Shown here one piece after another: positions 2,681 to 11,825 of a stretch of 11,825 bases of DNA (positions within the stretch are counted from its first letter, which is position 1; each line of letters opens with the position of its first letter). The notes under the pieces are model-generated. The model was given only the letters and a program-made list of their open reading frames with translations, was not told the DNA's origin and did no database searches. The DNA comes from a virus (lineage: Duplodnaviria; Heunggongvirae; Uroviricota; Caudoviricetes), in IMG/VR virus record IMGVR_UViG_2778261009_000010, positions 1 through 11,825 of that record. One strand, given 5' to 3'. A program made the translations under genes and the position numbers.

Positions 2681-3391
2681 ATGGTTCAGAATGAAAAAGT
2701 GCGCAAAGAATTCGCCCAGCGGCTAGCGCAAGCCTGTAAAGAAGCTGGTCTTGATGAACATGGTAGGGGTATGGCCATAGCCCGTGCCCTTTCTCTTTCG
2801 TCCAAAGGCGTTAGCAAATGGTTTAATGCTGAGTCTTTACCGCGTCAGGAAAAAATGAATGCGCTTGCGAAATTTCTAAACGTTGATGTTGTTTGGCTTC
2901 AGCACGGCACTTCGTTAAATGGAGCGAATGATGAAGATAATACTCTTTCATTTGTTGGCAAATTAAAAAAAGGGTTAGTGCGCGTGGTTGGTGAGGCAAT
3001 TCTTGGTGTTGATGGTGCCATCGAGATGACCGAAGAGCGCGATGGGTGGCTCAAGATTTATAGTGATGATCCAGATGCCTTTGGTCTTCGTGTGAAAGGA
3101 GACAGCATGTGGCCCAGAATAAAATCAGGAGAATATGTACTCATTGAGCCTAACACCAAAGTATTCCCGGGGGATGAGGTGTTTGTCAGAACCGTTGAAG
3201 GACACAACATGATCAAGATTCTTGGCTATGACAGAGATGGAGAATACCAATTTACAAGCATCAACCAGGACCACAGGCCAATAACGTTACCTTATCATCA
3301 AGTAGCAAAGGTGGAGTATGTGGCTGGTATTCTGAAGCAATCTCGTCATCTGGATGACATCGAGGCAAGGGAGTGGCTGAAAAGTTTGTGA
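2681..3391 (+). CDS. cI: CI-like prophage repressor (N-terminal HTH, C-terminal S24/LexA-type autopeptidase domain), non-lambda immunity
   Basis: 236 aa; divergent from cro; C-terminal domain carries GDSMWPRIKSGEYVLIEP (Ser nucleophile motif) and a downstream MIKIL lysine, typical of LexA/CI family. Confidence 0.9.
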   Translation: MVQNEKVRKEFAQRLAQACKEAGLDEHGRGMAIARALSLSSKGVSKWFNAESLPRQEKMNALAKFLNVDVVWLQHGTSLNGANDEDNTLSFVGKLKKGLVRVVGEAILGVDGAIEMTEERDGWLKIYSDDPDAFGLRVKGDSMWPRIKSGEYVLIEPNTKVFPGDEVFVRTVEGHNMIKILGYDRDGEYQFTSINQDHRPITLPYHQVAKVEYVAGILKQSRHLDDIEAREWLKSL

Positions 3392-3497: not shown

Positions 3498-3502
3498 ATT
3501 TG

Positions 3503-3835
3503 ATGAGAGGCGTTATGGAACCGGTCAAAATTAAACCATCTGTGGATTATATTGAAACCTATGCGGACTTCGCTAGTTTTGCTCCACTACCGGGAGCGGA
3601 AAAAAATCTCATTTGTATACATTTTATCGCAAACAAGTCAATACCTGCGGTACTATCCCAAAATGATATACCAGATCAACCAGGTAGAGCGAATATGCAG
3701 ATAGGCTCTGTAAATGAACTCAATCAGCAATGCACTGTGATAATGCCAATGGCACAACTAAAGGCTCTTCAGGAGAATATAGTTCTTCTTTTCGAACAAT
3801 TAGAGGCACAAAACTCTAATGGAGCGAAGTCGTAA
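3503..3835 (+). CDS. Hypothetical small protein, first gene of the cargo operon in the rexA position (start ambiguous: ATG 3503 or ATG 3515)
   Basis: ORF in the same orientation as cI; GAGAGG (3505-3510) precedes ATG 3515; stop overlaps the next start (TAATG at 3833-3837). No resemblance to lambda RexA that I can recognise. Confidence 0.6.
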   Translation: MRGVMEPVKIKPSVDYIETYADFASFAPLPGAEKNLICIHFIANKSIPAVLSQNDIPDQPGRANMQIGSVNELNQQCTVIMPMAQLKALQENIVLLFEQLEAQNSNGAKS

Positions 3836-4518
3836 TGCAACAACCGGAAGAAGTAGGTGATTTAACTATTACTTACAAAACATCAAGTATTGTTAAACCA
3901 CTGCAAGTTTCCCTGAATAACGTTAATACTCGCGATTTCATGATGTTCATGGAAACAGCAAAAGGTAATCTGTTTTCTACGCCTATTTCCTCTTATTCAC
4001 CAAAAAACATGGTGGATGATGCGACCAATTCCCAGCTAACTGCTACAATCGTAGATAAAGGAGGGGTTGCCGATTGTAAAGGACAATCTAATGTTATCCC
4101 ACCGTACGAGGAAACTCCTATACAGGGAACCGCAATGTCCGATTTGAGCAGAAACGAAATACAGGCACTTCTGAAGGCAAATAAAGCTGAAGTGGATGCA
4201 GTGGCCTCAAAAATGCAGGCTGATATGGCCAAATGGCGTGAACTAATGGCTTCAGATATAAAGGAGATGAAGCATTTAGTTGTTACTCAGCACGAACAAA
4301 TCAACAGTCGTCTGGACATACAATCGAGTAGAATTGAGAGTGCCCTTGACTCCCAATCAAAAAAGATCGATGCAGCTCTTTCTGTTCAAGAGGCAAAGTT
4401 AGAAGGTAAGCTTAGTGATGTTAAGCTTGATATAATCAAATGGGCCCTTGGCTTGCCAGCATTAGCATTTGCTGTATATAAAATCTACGGATTGCTCTCT
4501 GGAGTCTCAACCCCCTAA
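3835..4518 (+). CDS. Hypothetical coiled-coil protein with a single C-terminal transmembrane helix (tail-anchored), second gene of the cargo operon in the rexB position
   Basis: 227 aa; residues about 105-200 are rich in heptad-like charged/hydrophobic pattern (EIQALLKANKAEVDAVASKMQADMAKWRELMASDIKEMK...); C-terminus WALGLPALAFAVYKIYGLL is a 19-residue hydrophobic segment; followed directly by a strong intrinsic terminator. Confidence 0.7.
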   Translation: MQQPEEVGDLTITYKTSSIVKPLQVSLNNVNTRDFMMFMETAKGNLFSTPISSYSPKNMVDDATNSQLTATIVDKGGVADCKGQSNVIPPYEETPIQGTAMSDLSRNEIQALLKANKAEVDAVASKMQADMAKWRELMASDIKEMKHLVVTQHEQINSRLDIQSSRIESALDSQSKKIDAALSVQEAKLEGKLSDVKLDIIKWALGLPALAFAVYKIYGLLSGVSTP

Positions 4519-5257: not shown

Positions 5258-5839
5258 TTACTTGTTTTTGCCATGCTTATCCTGAGCGATAAGTTCATCC
5301 ATAAGACTGTCTTTCTTCCCAGCAAACCTAATGTAGCACTCATTTCTATAGCGTTCCGGGATAACAAAACGGTCGATTTCAGGATATCCAGTAGCAGAAG
5401 GTACCCGAATAAGAAGCCCTTTTTCGAGCAATGAGATTGCTTCAGGGCTTCCCTTTTCTGTCTTTAGCTGGTTATTAGCGGCTACAGCGAATGCCAAATA
5501 CGCTCTTTCTCCAAGAGTTAACGAATCAAACAAATCTTGCACGTATTTCTCTTCTTTAGATTTGCGCTTCTGAGCAGCGAATATCTCAATTCTTTCAGTC
5601 ACAGCGTGATAAGCGGAATTAACAACGCCGTTAAGCACATAGCTAACGCAAAACAACAGGATGTAATACATCCAGTAATGAGGAAGGATTTCTGGATTAT
5701 GCAGGTTTATCCATTCTTTTACGCTTACAGGCATAACAATAATCAATATGATCAGGATGATTAGCATATGAATCAACTGTTTAAGTGTCATTCCTTGCAG
5801 GAAAAAATGCATTAGTTCCTGCCACCATGAGTTGTTCAT
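5258..5839 (-). CDS. sieB: SieB-like superinfection exclusion membrane protein
   Basis: 193 aa, convergent with N, same position and orientation as lambda sieB relative to N/ea10; two N-terminal hydrophobic helices (LIHMLIILIILIIVMPVSV; HYWMYYILLFCVSYVLNGVV). Confidence 0.6.
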   Translation of the reverse strand: MNNSWWQELMHFFLQGMTLKQLIHMLIILIILIIVMPVSVKEWINLHNPEILPHYWMYYILLFCVSYVLNGVVNSAYHAVTERIEIFAAQKRKSKEEKYVQDLFDSLTLGERAYLAFAVAANNQLKTEKGSPEAISLLEKGLLIRVPSATGYPEIDRFVIPERYRNECYIRFAGKKDSLMDELIAQDKHGKNK

Positions 5840-6053
5840 CGGCGTTTCTCTTTTGCTCTCTGTAGGGGTGAATAGAGTTTATCCGATTTCTCGCTGTAGG
5901 GGTACACGAGAACCACCGAGCCTGATGTGGTTAAAAGACAGGCATACTAATAAACACTGCACTGTGTATTCATTCCAACGAGTGAATACACTGAGCAATG
6001 TCGCTCGTAACTAAACAGGAGCCGACTTGTTCTGATTATTGGAAATCTTCTTT

Positions 6054-6079
6054 GCCCTCCAATGTGAGGGCGATTTTTT
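6054..6079 (+). terminator. Rho-independent terminator upstream of ea10 (tL2-like position)
   Basis: Stem gccctc (6054-6059), loop caatgt, stem gagggc (6066-6071), then GATTTTTTA. Confidence 0.6.
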
Positions 6080-6099
6080 ATCTGTGAGGATATGAATAG

Positions 6100-6468
6100 A
6101 TGTCAAACATCAAAAAATACATCATTGATTACGACTGGAAAGCATCAATAGAAATTGAAATCGACCATGACGTAATGACAGAGGAAAAACTTCACCAGAT
6201 TAATAATTTCTGGTCAGACTCTGAATACCGACTCAATAAACACGGCTCTGTATTAAATGCTGTATTAATCATGCTGGCGCAACATGCTCTGCTTATAGCA
6301 ATTTCAAGCGACTTAAATGCATATGGTGTTGTGTGTGAGTTCGACTGGAATGATGGAAATGGTCAGGAAGGATGGCCTCCAATGGATGGTAGCGAAGGAA
6401 TAAGAATTACCGATATCGATACATCAGGAATATTTGATTCAGATGATATGACTATCAAAGCCGCCTGA
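6100..6468 (+). CDS. ea10: Ea10-like protein of the lambda pL operon
   Basis: 122 aa; RBS GTGAGGA (6084-6090); size and position upstream of cIII as in lambda. Sequence identity to lambda Ea10 is from memory and not verified. Confidence 0.8.
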   Translation: MSNIKKYIIDYDWKASIEIEIDHDVMTEEKLHQINNFWSDSEYRLNKHGSVLNAVLIMLAQHALLIAISSDLNAYGVVCEFDWNDGNGQEGWPPMDGSEGIRITDIDTSGIFDSDDMTIKAA

Positions 6469-6492
6469 GCGCGGCGTTACCGCATACCAATA

Positions 6493-6518
6493 ACGCTTCA
6501 CTCGAGGCGTTTTTCGTT
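6493..6518 (+). terminator. Terminator-like hairpin between ea10 and cIII
   Basis: Stem acgcttc / gaggcgt (one G-U), loop actc, followed by TTTTCGTT. Confidence 0.35.
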
Positions 6519-6540
6519 ATGTATAAATAAGGAGCACACC

Positions 6541-6705
6541 ATGCAATATGCCATTGCAGGGTGGCCTGTTGCTGGCTGCCCTTCCGAATCTTTACTTGAA
6601 CGAATCACCCGTAAATTACGTGACGGATGGAAACGCCTTATCGACATACTTAATCAGCCAGGAGTCCCAAAAAATGGATCAAACACTTATGGCTATCCAG
6701 ACTAA
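6541..6705 (+). CDS. cIII: CIII (inhibitor of FtsH-mediated CII degradation)
   Basis: Manual translation from ATG 6541 (RBS AAGGAG 6529-6534): [54 protein letters not shown], 54 aa, which I recognise as lambda CIII. Below the 60-aa cutoff of the ORF track. Confidence 0.9.
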   Translation: MQYAIAGWPVAGCPSESLLERITRKLRDGWKRLIDILNQPGVPKNGSNTYGYPD

Positions 6706-8656: not shown

Positions 8657-8811
8657 CGCATCCTCACGATAATATCCGGGTAGGCGCGATCACTTTCGTC
8701 TACTCCGTTACAAAGCGAGGCTGGGTATTTCCCGGCCTTTCTGTTATCCGAAATCCGCTGAAAGCCCAGCGGCTGGCTGAGGAGATAAATAATAAACGGG
8801 AGAGTGTATGA
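8653..8811 (+). CDS. Small hypothetical protein (52 aa), translationally coupled between exo and the 250-aa ORF
   Basis: Manual translation from ATG 8653 (overlapping the exo stop): [52 protein letters not shown]; its stop overlaps the next ATG (ATGA at 8808-8811). Too short for the ORF track. Confidence 0.5.
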
Positions 8812-9560
8812 TTCATTTTCACGGTGGTCCAATAACTCCCGATACCTGTGCGTTGAAAGCCTGGAAAGGCAGACACGCATTCATCAGTTTTGCTAATCCA
8901 GCTCAGATTGATCTGGCTTCCGAAGTCACCCAATCATTTGCTCTTGATAATGGTGCATTCACATTCTGGACAAAAAACAAGGCCGTAGACTGGAATGAAT
9001 ATTACAGATTTGTTGAACGCTGGGGCAATCACCCTCGTTTCTCATTCGCGGTTATCCCGGATGTTATCGGCGGAACCAGTGAAGAGAATGACGCCCTGAT
9101 TGCGGCATGGCCTCACGGTAAATTTATTGGTGCTCCGGTGTGGCACATGAACGAACCAGATGAGCGATTTATTCGTCTGTGCCATGAGTTTCCCCGCGTC
9201 TGCATCGGCTCGATGGGGGAATACGATGCAAAACGACCGAGAGCGTGTCGGGCTAAACTACGCGATCTTATACGTCATGTTGTAGATCAGTACGGCTACC
9301 CAATCACCAAGATTCATGGGTTACGGATGTTAAATAAAGACATTTTTACTCATGTACCGCTTTCGTCTGCAGACAGCACGAACGTCGCAAGAAATATAGG
9401 CATCGACAAATCCTGGGTAGGTTCGCCATATGCTCCCGCAAGTAAAGAAACCCGTACGCAAGTTCTTGTGGAACGCATTGAATCATTCAACAGTGCCAGT
9501 TCACTTAATTACAACGCTGAACGGGACGTCTTTACCCCTCAACTGGCATTCGAAGTGTGA
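8808..9560 (+). CDS. Hypothetical protein (250 aa), accessory gene downstream of exo
   Basis: Long ORF in the operon orientation, start coupled to the preceding small ORF. Not any lambda protein I can recognise. Confidence 0.75.
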   Translation: MIHFHGGPITPDTCALKAWKGRHAFISFANPAQIDLASEVTQSFALDNGAFTFWTKNKAVDWNEYYRFVERWGNHPRFSFAVIPDVIGGTSEENDALIAAWPHGKFIGAPVWHMNEPDERFIRLCHEFPRVCIGSMGEYDAKRPRACRAKLRDLIRHVVDQYGYPITKIHGLRMLNKDIFTHVPLSSADSTNVARNIGIDKSWVGSPYAPASKETRTQVLVERIESFNSASSLNYNAERDVFTPQLAFEV

Positions 9561-9881: not shown

Positions 9882-10103
9882 ATGGCAGACATCATTGATT
9901 CAGCATCAGAAATTGAAGAATTACAGCGCAACACAGCAATAAAAATGCGCCGCCTGAACCACCAGGCTATATCTGCCACTCATTGTTGTGAGTGTGGCGA
10001 TCCGATAGATGAACGAAGACGCCTGGCCGTTCAGGGTTGTCGGACTTGTGCAAGTTGCCAGGAGGATCTGGAACTTATCAGTAAACAGAGAGGTTCGAAG
10101 TGA
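9882..10103 (+). CDS. TraR/DksA-family C4 zinc-finger protein (lambda Orf73-like RNA polymerase-binding factor)
   Basis: 73 aa with CxxC-x17-CxxC (CCECGDPIDERRRLAVQGCRTCASC), the DksA/TraR zinc-finger signature, and the size of TraR-type proteins. Confidence 0.8.
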   Translation: MADIIDSASEIEELQRNTAIKMRRLNHQAISATHCCECGDPIDERRRLAVQGCRTCASCQEDLELISKQRGSK

Positions 10104-10255
10104 GCGAAATTAACTAGAAGTCAAAGATAAAATCATCGCTGAGCAGGAGAAAATCGCTAACGGAGAAAAGACAGTAAGTCAGTATATGAAAACCGCATGA
10201 TATCATCAGATAAAAATCGATCGTAAAGCGAAATATTCATACCAGAATAAACGAG

Positions 10256-10279
10256 TCGAGGTAAATTATATTACCTCGA
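10256..10279 (-). terminator. Hairpin downstream of the minus-strand membrane-protein gene, possible terminator
   Basis: Perfect 9-bp inverted repeat tcgaggtaa / ttacctcga with 6-nt loop, 35-60 nt past the stop of the 10314-10916 gene; the following minus-strand sequence is only moderately U-rich. Confidence 0.35.
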
Positions 10280-10313
10280 TAAATTAACTAAAACTTGCCC
10301 GCTATATACTATC

Positions 10314-10916
10314 TCATTCAGTATCATCACGCGTGGTCTGTGCATATGTCACTACCGCACCTAATGTATTAATTTTCTTTTCAACATAGATAATATTATC
10401 GTACTCATAATTGCCATACGGATAGCAAATGCGAATATCCTCATGTAGATCGGGGTCATCCACCTCAGCTCCAGAACAACTTTTTGAACTACCGGAAGTA
10501 TACCGATACGGTGCAACATAAGACGATGTCTCTCCAGGCAAAAAATAAGTTAGTGTTGTAAGGGGTATAATCAGAAAAAATCCAGAAAATATGCATATCC
10601 CTGCATAAACCTTAAGGTATGCTGACAGACTCTTCCAGCCGCTTTGTTTTACTATCCCCTTCTTAACCCAAAACAGAGATAACAGAAAAGCTATTCCCAT
10701 GCTAAACAGAATGTAATAGTGGGATATACTCTGATTAAGAAACGTGACCCTGTAGATATCTGCCCGCCACCAGAAGAAAAGGAAAATAAAGATCAGCCCT
10801 GAAACTGTCATGCAAATCAAATAAGGATACGAATCTTTTTTCATGTTTAGCGCCCATAAAATTTTTCCTGCCCCGGACAAATTTACCATCCATTTTTTGC
10901 GCAGAAAATAGCTCAT
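10314..10916 (-). CDS. Hypothetical integral membrane protein (3-4 predicted TM helices), low-GC moron on the opposite strand; start uncertain (ATG 10916 or internal ATG 10844)
   Basis: 200 aa with hydrophobic segments YLICMTVSGLIFIFLFFWW, YYILFSMGIAFLLSLFWV, ICIFSGFFLIIPLTTLTYFL and a roughly 60-aa hydrophilic C-terminal domain; coding sequence visibly more AT-rich than the lambda-type genes; opposite strand to the surrounding operon. Confidence 0.7.
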   Translation of the reverse strand: MSYFLRKKWMVNLSGAGKILWALNMKKDSYPYLICMTVSGLIFIFLFFWWRADIYRVTFLNQSISHYYILFSMGIAFLLSLFWVKKGIVKQSGWKSLSAYLKVYAGICIFSGFFLIIPLTTLTYFLPGETSSYVAPYRYTSGSSKSCSGAEVDDPDLHEDIRICYPYGNYEYDNIIYVEKKINTLGAVVTYAQTTRDDTE

Positions 10917-11087
10917 TACTTACTGCACAATAATACACAAAATTGCGTAAATTTTTTGCATGGATTTTAGCTCTTTCAGCCGACATTTAAGGGGTAAAGA
11001 GCATTTCCTAAAAGCAACTGACCAACCCAACAGAATGGGCTACCGCTTACGTTGAGAGCAAAAAAGTGTATAGCAGCAATGAACAGC

Positions 11088-11116
11088 ATCCTCGCACTGA
11101 CGAGGATTTCTTTTAT
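11088..11116 (+). terminator. Rho-independent terminator with no obvious upstream plus-strand gene
   Basis: Stem atcctcg (11088-11094), loop cactga, stem cgaggat (11101-11107), then TTCTTTTAT. Confidence 0.6.
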
Positions 11117-11157
11117 CTGAACTCGCTACGGCGGGTTTTGTTTTATGGAGACAAGAA

Positions 11158-11502
11158 ATGTCAGATTTGGCTATGAAGGTTTTGAAATGGCAATCAACTG
11201 GCGATGTCGGCATCAGTAGCGCAACTCTTGCCTCAATCGCATGTGGCCTGAAAAAGAATATCTATGGTCATCACTTCGGCGCTCCCCATGACGCAGCAGA
11301 CTTTCGGCGATGCGTTGCACTTGTTGAGCAGATTCCAGAAATCAGAGATTCATTCGACAAGGTTGCAAAGCGCGTTCCGGCATTCAAAGGAATCCTCAAC
11401 GAATGGGATTCACTCGTTGCTCTGTTGAAGTCTGAAATGAAGACGTACGGGAACAAAGCACCAGAGACTTACAGAAGAATCAGCGAGCTACGCAAGGACT
11501 AA
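11158..11502 (+). CDS. Hypothetical protein (114 aa)
   Basis: ORF with GGAGA (11145-11149) upstream of ATG 11158; followed by a hairpin gcctca/tgaggc at 11506-11524. No recognised family. Confidence 0.7.
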   Translation: MSDLAMKVLKWQSTGDVGISSATLASIACGLKKNIYGHHFGAPHDAADFRRCVALVEQIPEIRDSFDKVAKRVPAFKGILNEWDSLVALLKSEMKTYGNKAPETYRRISELRKD

Positions 11503-11624: not shown

Positions 11625-11825
11625 ATGCAACACGAACTACAACCTGATTCACTGGTTGATTTGAAATTCATCATGGCTGATACTGGCTTCGGTAAGACCT
11701 TCATCTATGACCGGATTAAGTCCGGCGACCTGCCTAAAGCCAAAGTTATCCACGGACGAGCAAGATGGTTATATCGTGACCATTGTGAATTCAAAAATAA
11801 GCTCTTAAGCCGCGCCAATGGGTAA
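11625..11825 (+). CDS. AlpA-family DNA-binding protein, probable excisionase (Xis) preceding an integrase beyond the window
   Basis: 66 aa; MerR-like winged HTH pattern typical of AlpA/Xis proteins (LVDLKFIMADTGFGKTFIYDRIKSGDLPKAKVIHGRARWLYRDHCEFKNKL); GGAGA RBS upstream; located where xis sits in lambdoid phages (distal end of the pL operon). Confidence 0.75.
   Translation: MQHELQPDSLVDLKFIMADTGFGKTFIYDRIKSGDLPKAKVIHGRARWLYRDHCEFKNKLLSRANG

Follow-up and report, generated by a model that had tools for sequence, protein, structure and literature searches.

The window (the whole 11,825-nt stretch of DNA that was analysed) comprises the early-left and immunity region of a lambdoid prophage, with the pL direction on the plus strand. 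The P, O, cII and cro genes occur on the minus strand. The plus strand carries cI (2681-3391), N, cIII/kil, gam, bet and exo, followed by a TraR/DksA-type gene, ORF114 and xis. Segment 10100-11160 shares 98% identity with phages 434, 2B8 and mEp332, and the prophage is of the 434 type. Embedded in the exo-xis part of the pL operon is a 200-codon open reading frame on the minus strand at 10314-10916. As originally predicted, this frame is antisense to the surrounding pL-driven genes, the flanking TraR-like gene, ORF114 and xis all being on the plus strand. The TraR-like gene belongs to the lambda Orf73-type zinc-finger class, whose members have been reported to reprogram host RNA polymerase (PMC9239242). 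The features of the locus are as follows.

9882-10103, plus strand: TraR/DksA-type zinc-finger gene of the lambda Orf73 type
10117-11061: 434-type mosaic segment, delimited by homology breakpoints, in the place where other lambdoid phages have ea22/ea8.5-type genes
10207-10981, minus strand: mobile cassette of ~775 bp (upstream region, coding sequence and hairpin), delimited by blastn to the P2-like prophage L024
10246-10279, minus strand: putative intrinsic terminator found by a terminator scan, with a 9-bp stem, a 6-nt loop and the tail CTCGTTTATT
10314-10844, minus strand: conserved coding sequence of 176 codons plus stop, defined by homologue alignment, upstream stops, dN/dS and PGAP
10317-10541, minus strand: C-terminal domain of ~75 residues, predicted to be periplasmic, based on AlphaFold2 (AF2), conservation and PHROG_1416
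10542-10826, minus strand: three predicted transmembrane (TM) helices, residues 7-27, 42-60 and 80-101 of the 176-residue protein, with a basic, predicted cytoplasmic TM2-TM3 loop
10845-10916, minus strand: non-conserved 24-codon 5' extension of the annotated 200-residue frame
10880-10888, minus strand: putative extended -10 element, TGgTAAATT, 35 nt upstream of ATG 10844
10903-10908, minus strand: weak -35-like hexamer, TTTTCT, 17 nt upstream of TAAATT and matching TTGACA at 3 of 6 positions
10923-10950, minus strand: two to three direct (A)TTGTGCA-like repeats with 10-bp spacing, following an A-tract
11088-11138, plus strand: tandem pL-direction terminators, tL4 of the phage 434 record (-20.9 kcal/mol, z = -3.8)
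11158-11502, plus strand: ORF114
11625-11825 (window end), plus strand: TorI-type xis, a KplE1-like excisionase

Other parts of the window contain further accessory features. A true SieB homologue is encoded at 5258-5839 on the minus strand (Pfam SieB, E = 1e-25). Its placement, antisense beside N, matches the arrangement of sieB in P22, and one known exclusion gene is thus already present on the opposite strand of this prophage. Directly 3' of cI, on the same strand and in the rexA/rexB slot, are two low-GC frames. The first (3500-3835, plus strand) encodes 111 residues and had no matches. The second (3835-4518, plus strand) encodes 227 residues that include a coiled-coil region and, at the C-terminus, a hydrophobic helix; its match is PHROG_14825, of unknown function. 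This pair is a candidate lysogen-expressed exclusion module. Within the exo-xis region, the 250-residue product of 8808-9560 (plus strand) matched PHROG_887, 'queuine tRNA-ribosyltransferase', with E = 4e-99. The match spans only the first half of the profile, there is no Pfam match, and the frame may be a truncated Tgt/DpdA-like gene. The Rfam element Lambda_thermo, the cIII thermoregulator, was located at 6528-6586 (plus strand, 88.5 bits), upstream of the cIII start, which it overlaps. The TorI-type excisionase of strain CEA224S is not followed by an integrase.

The original prediction gave the antisense gene a product of 200 residues and left the choice between ATG 10916 and ATG 10844 unsure. 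The 200-codon frame exists, but the conserved protein is shorter, with ATG 10844 as its start. The alignments with all 26 distant homologues begin at M25 of the 200-residue frame, which corresponds to ATG 10844. Eight other loci have an in-frame stop 1-18 codons before the equivalent of this ATG with no alternative start between them, and the PGAP call for a sister allele is a coding sequence of 531 nt. Together, these data establish a protein of 176 residues (10314-10844). The 24-codon extension is open in the 434-type lineage only and contains the conserved -10 element. We therefore consider 10845-10916 to be most likely a 5' untranslated region and core promoter rather than coding sequence. 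Position relative to this element also disfavours two upstream start codons: ATG 10916 lies upstream of TGnTAAATT and ATG 10889 abuts it. Accordingly, the RefSeq call of 200 residues and the phage 434 call of 188 residues from a TTG are probably over-extensions. The Shine-Dalgarno sequence is weak in the E. coli alleles.

Pairwise dN/dS values against three alleles were 0.12, 0.08 and 0.17; the comparison was restricted to those alleles for which dS was still estimable, synonymous divergence being otherwise saturated. The gene is under purifying selection. Two overlapping frames were rejected as genes: the 83-residue frame at 10735-10986 and the 56-residue CPT_434_35 had no family matches and coincide with the conserved non-coding control region. 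An Rfam scan found no RNA family in the region of the target gene.

We compared the region upstream of the gene in five loci: the window, phage 434 and three P2-like loci. The sequences are 70-76% identical overall and include invariant blocks corresponding to the A-tract, the (A)TTGTGCA repeats, TTTTCT and TGnTAAATT. The T-G and TAAATT positions are invariant across all five loci; variants of TGnTAAATT were found in L016 and L019. The TGnTAAATT element and the upstream repeats travel with the gene, and a generic sigma-70 scan yielded no canonical match there. The conservation pattern suggests that TGnTAAATT is an extended -10 promoter, and the repeat array at 10923-10950 may serve as an activator or UP-like site. 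This TTGTG repeat array is bracketed by a 26-nt direct repeat (73% identity, 59-nt spacing) at 10892-10917 and 10951-10976.

The phage 434 record marks a 'CII consensus', TTGTGTATTATTGT, at 10940-10927 on the minus strand, which is part of the repeat array. We rejected this annotation of a CII-dependent promoter. CII control is unsupported because the pattern occurs at chance level (TTGY-N6-TTGY was found 4 times in the window versus 2.9 expected), because the marked site is followed by a poor -10 hexamer, AGCTAT, and because the (A)TTGTGCA repeats are conserved, and more perfect, in the P2-like loci L005 and L024. No CII-type activator is known from P2-like phages. As an internal control, we used the pRE-like site of the window (TTGC-N6-TTGT, 2213-2226). 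This site lies within the 5' end of cII at 2213-2245 on the plus strand and consists of TTGCTGTAACTTGT, a 13-nt interval and TAAGAT.

At the other end of the gene, the perfect 9-bp hairpin predicted to follow the coding sequence is present as TCGAGGTAA-N6-TTACCTCGA at 10279-10256 on the minus strand. The hairpin was called by the terminator scan, providing the gene with a putative terminator of its own, as expected of a moron. Its folding energy of -12.9 kcal/mol (z = -2.0 versus shuffles) indicates moderate strength, and its tail, CUCGUUUAUU, is only moderately T-rich. In a P2-type cassette that is 76% identical, the same position has a weaker hairpin in which one pair is compensatory (A-T to G-C). 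The tL4 terminators are downstream of the cassette in the pL direction.

The base composition of the gene also agrees with the original description of an AT-rich coding sequence among lambda-type genes: its GC content is 38.8%, as compared to 53% for bet/exo and 45.7% for the window. The interval 10104-11157 is 38.4% GC, and other accessory genes of the window are equally AT-rich (40% in the sieB homologue and 38.5% in an ea10-like gene). Homology to lambda and Stx phages ends at ~10116, ~12 nt past the stop codon of the TraR-like gene, and resumes at ~11062, just before tL4. Among deposited phages, only 434, 2B8 and mEp332 carry this insert. Within it, the cassette aligned by blastn to positions 5864-6636 of the E. 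coli P2-like prophage L024 with 76% nucleotide identity over 778 columns. The aligned stretch includes 137 bp 5' of the ATG and 107 bp 3' of the stop codon.

Directly 3' of the cassette in the P2-like prophages of E. coli, and convergent to it, there is a partial ead/Ea22 gene of lambdoid type (5271-5641 in L030 and 4771-5142 in L031). The presence of this fragment beside the P2-type cassette indicates that the cassette was captured out of a lambdoid exo-xis region and into the hotspot between the portal gene Q and the replication gene A of P2. The cassette has thus moved between lambdoid and P2-like phage types. Overall, the homology breaks, the recurrence of the unit in unrelated P2-like prophages, the composition, the purifying selection and an intact copy in a decayed remnant (below) bear out the prediction of a self-contained moron. 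That the gene is a genuine, autonomously organised moron, antisense within the exo-xis part of the pL operon, is well supported.

Of 5426 complete E. coli genomes, 915 contain the 434-type allele. It is chromosomal in every case, and its locations include O157:H7 prophages at ybhC. Querying with the second-allele cassette of L024 added a further 160 genomes, 77 with matches of at least 95% identity and 83 with matches of ~78%. Roughly one complete E. coli genome in five has a member of the family. One of the ~78%-identity loci was inspected: in strain E189, the gene is intact within a decayed torI-type remnant next to dsdC, in which the adjoining exo-type and tail-fibre genes are pseudogenes.

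In P2-like prophages of E. coli, Salmonella and Klebsiella michiganensis, homologues of 51-77% identity are located between Q and A. The neighbouring genes vary by locus and include a YafO toxin, an AAA_16 pair and ParM/StbA. The Q-A interval, home of old and tin, is a hotspot of anti-phage systems that also holds partition systems and CDT (Rousset et al. 2022, PMC9122126). The fourth most frequent cargo of this hotspot in E. coli is System #4, listed in Table S5B of that study with no Pfam domain, 470 occurrences, the description '3 TM' and no notes (PMC9122126). The System #4 representative and the window protein share 51% identity over 171 residues (E = 6e-57). The sequence of System #4 does not occur in the tested-systems table of Rousset et al. 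2022. Stand-alone homologues were also found on chromosomes in non-phage contexts, in Enterobacter mori and Klebsiella (43-47% identity), Cedecea (54%) and a Pseudomonas-like contig (~29%). These chromosomal homologues often lie beside LysR regulators and are not accompanied by phage genes.

Shortened forms of the P2-type gene are also common. A truncated allele (P0128) of 112 residues with an apparent GTG start occurs in at least 1000 contigs, and frameshifted alleles are very common (for example, L031 4093-4668). These short and frameshifted alleles are either widespread pseudogenes or a shorter form consisting of one TM helix and the domain.

We searched for relatives of the protein and for known functions among them. 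Residues 113-200 of the 200-residue frame matched PHROG_1416, a family of unknown function, with E = 1.4e-49. The protein has the layout of the System #4/PHROG_1416 family, with three TM helices followed by a conserved C-terminal CSGA...IC domain. A word-indexed protein search yielded 74 relatives of 169-180 residues; identity is 95-99% for those from Escherichia and Shigella, and 43-77% for those from other E. coli, Salmonella, Enterobacter, Klebsiella and Cedecea. When 1.84 billion representatives were searched exhaustively with a profile, only 58 members emerged, all with the same ~170-residue architecture, and the family motifs are invariant in homologues down to 17-30% identity. The original prediction would have failed had profile searches identified a structural phage component; none was found.

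Searches of functional databases were likewise negative. Pfam and NCBIfam scans of the target returned nothing, SieB (PF14163) included in the case of Pfam. A Pfam scan of 27 diverse members returned only scattered noise in the TM region, with NfeD (PF01957) in none of them. No family in PADLOC-DB 2.0 matched at E <= 1, and a PDB profile search returned nothing below E = 0.2. The BFVD search had no significant match, the one weak hit being an NfeD-like protein at E = 0.11. The Vassallo 2022 supplements do not include the family, and a literature search on the accessions, the phage 434 genome and exo-xis membrane proteins identified no functional study. The family is uncharacterised: already catalogued but unstudied.

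The protein had been predicted to contain three or four hydrophobic helices. Kyte-Doolittle analysis supports three, at approximately residues 31-51, 66-84 and 103-126 in the 200-residue numbering. The fourth did not hold up: residues 10-24 are weakly hydrophobic and belong to the non-conserved extension. Similarly, the C-terminal domain is hydrophilic as described, but comprises ~74 residues (127-200) rather than roughly 60. An AlphaFold2 model based on a 27-sequence alignment (pLDDT 84.7, pTM 0.70) placed helices at residues 5-29, 38-61 and 70-101 of the 176-residue protein and included a short strand in loop 1 and six strands in the C-terminal domain. Over the 27 homologues, the mean number of Lys and Arg residues is 4.3 per 16 residues in the TM2-TM3 loop, 1.4 per 14 residues in the TM1-TM2 loop and 1.6 in the N-terminus, which is short. 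Considered with the positive-inside rule, this distribution predicts a cytoplasmic N-terminus and a periplasmic C-terminal domain. We infer that the protein spans the inner membrane three times, with its N-terminus inside and a domain of ~75 residues in the periplasm.

Modelled alone, the C-terminal domain is predicted to form a small, 5-6-stranded OB-like beta-barrel (AF2 pLDDT 90). The only residues invariant across the 27 homologues are two cysteines, C123 and C140 (176-residue numbering), both in this domain, and the domain contains exactly two cysteines in 26 of the 27. The occurrence of an invariant Cys pair in a domain predicted to be periplasmic points to a disulfide; C123 and C140 are probably joined by such a bond. 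The most conserved part of the protein is the predicted periplasmic barrel, not the helices.

The gene is convergent with pL, and N-antiterminated lytic transcription from pL would run antisense through it. Expression is therefore expected mainly from the repressed prophage. There, the three-pass protein would display loop 1 and the OB-like barrel in the periplasm, where it may interfere with delivery of an incoming phage genome across the periplasm or inner membrane, and so protect the lysogen. This reading, envelope-level superinfection exclusion of other phages, is a guess from context that we hold tentatively and rate somewhat below an even chance. It is based on the predicted orientation toward the periplasm, the single-gene organisation, the occurrence in two phage accessory slots, one of which is a defence hotspot, and the retention of the gene in decaying prophages. 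More generally, the evidence for a function in exclusion, defence or host fitness is circumstantial, consisting of the hotspot location and the predicted periplasm-facing membrane architecture. Searches of Pfam, NCBIfam, PHROGs and PADLOC and an hhalign comparison with P22 SieA did not relate the target to a known protein of exclusion or defence. A more specific version of the proposal is doubtful, though worth stating: the gene might be the founder of a new single-gene, periplasm-facing exclusion or defence family in about one-fifth of E. coli genomes, including O157:H7, borne on a promoter-to-terminator cassette that moves between the lambdoid exo-xis region and the P2 Q-A interval. In this version, a disulfide-bonded OB-like barrel would intercept the genome-delivery machinery, and a shared host regulator would act at the TTGTGCA repeats.

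The main rival to exclusion is a role in envelope protection or fitness that is unrelated to phages, such as orphan immunity to a bacteriocin acting in the periplasm or on the membrane, or to a T6SS or CDI toxin, or stress tolerance. The gene would then be one of lysogenic conversion. We consider this unlikely, but it accounts well for the stand-alone chromosomal homologues in Enterobacter mori, Klebsiella, Cedecea and the Pseudomonas-like contig, and the P2 hotspot holds non-defence cargo as well. Moreover, small multi-pass inner-membrane proteins are the typical form of immunity to pore-formers, and the periplasmic immunity protein Cmi is disulfide-bonded. However, no locus examined has an adjacent toxin gene, the protein has no similarity to the known immunity families in Pfam or NCBIfam, and the strongest enrichment of the family is in phage accessory slots.

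An effector of abortive infection, in which the periplasmic domain would sense perturbation of the envelope and the helices would then depolarise the membrane, is improbable. The gene occupies the same P2 hotspot as several systems whose TM proteins have been interpreted as suicide effectors (PMC9122126). Against this, the locus consists of one gene without a constant partner, the adjoining genes vary between loci, PADLOC gave no match and the periplasmic barrel is more conserved than the helices.

A role in the lysis-lysogeny decision is very improbable. In one form of this idea, a CII-activated gene would encode an NfeD-like SPFH partner whose OB-like domain acts on HflKC-FtsH. The CII consensus marked just upstream by the phage 434 annotators, the known influence of the exo-xis region on lysogenisation (PMC3824215), and a TM and OB layout like that of short NfeD proteins, together with the weak NfeD-like match in BFVD (E = 0.11), could all be cited for it. 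Nevertheless, the CII pattern occurs at chance frequency and, unlike the pRE-like site of the window, is followed by a poor -10 (AGCTAT). Further, P2-like phages share the (A)TTGTGCA repeats, Pfam gave no NfeD match for any of the 27 members, and chromosomal homologues exist outside phages. Finally, despite the frequent truncated and frameshifted copies and the weak Shine-Dalgarno sequence of the E. coli alleles, a selfish or decaying passenger without present function, or a frame that is not a gene, is just as hard to credit given the dN/dS of 0.08-0.17, the motifs invariant down to 17-30% identity, the confident AF2 models (pLDDT 85 and 90) and the intact gene in a decayed prophage.

The locus is of note mainly for its prevalence and for its movement between lambdoid and P2-like phages. 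It provides a clean example of a promoter-to-terminator cassette, the promoter being putative, that moves between unrelated temperate phage families. If the product is an exclusion or defence protein, as in the preferred reading, it would rank with the most prevalent of the phage-resistance determinants of E. coli that still lack characterisation. Current defence finders do not pick up the family despite its rank as the fourth commonest cargo of the P2 hotspot. A practical consequence is that the annotated starts, which yield 200 residues in RefSeq and 188 in the phage 434 record, are probably wrong.

SieA of phage P22 is one of the closest known systems. It is an inner-membrane moron product of ~164 residues with three TM helices that blocks DNA injection (PMC10883804). 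Both SieA and the target are small (~164-176 residues) three-TM inner-membrane proteins encoded by an opposite-strand moron; the SieA moron has its own promoter and SieA is expressed from the prophage, whereas the target's own promoter is putative. SieA has a ~50-residue loop after TM1, a short C-terminal tail and no C-terminal beta domain, while such a domain is predicted in the target. Homology between the two was rejected: in hhalign, the probability of a match to P22 SieA (type A) was 0.2%. T4 Imm and Sp and HK97 gp15 are also small, membrane-anchored proteins of the periplasm or inner membrane that block genome entry (review PMC11436027). The searches gave no sequence or fold match between them and the target. 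The closest known proteins also include membrane-anchored small OB or beta-barrel proteins, namely DUF1093 (3npp), YhhM/DUF2500 (3q6c) and the C-terminal domain of NfeD.

At the level of the gene itself, CPT_434_36 of phage 434, a 'putative membrane protein' (OL657226), is essentially the same gene, with 98% nucleotide and 97.7% amino-acid identity. It is annotated with a TTG start and 188 residues, and PGAP gives 200 residues, whereas our comparison favours 176. ORF-22+ of M60848, the old record of the 434 int-xis region, corresponds to the 5' end of the target gene, with tL4 named beyond it. System #4 of the P2 hotspot belongs to the same protein family and is likewise a single gene; the window copy resides in the lambdoid exo-xis region and System #4 in the P2 hotspot.
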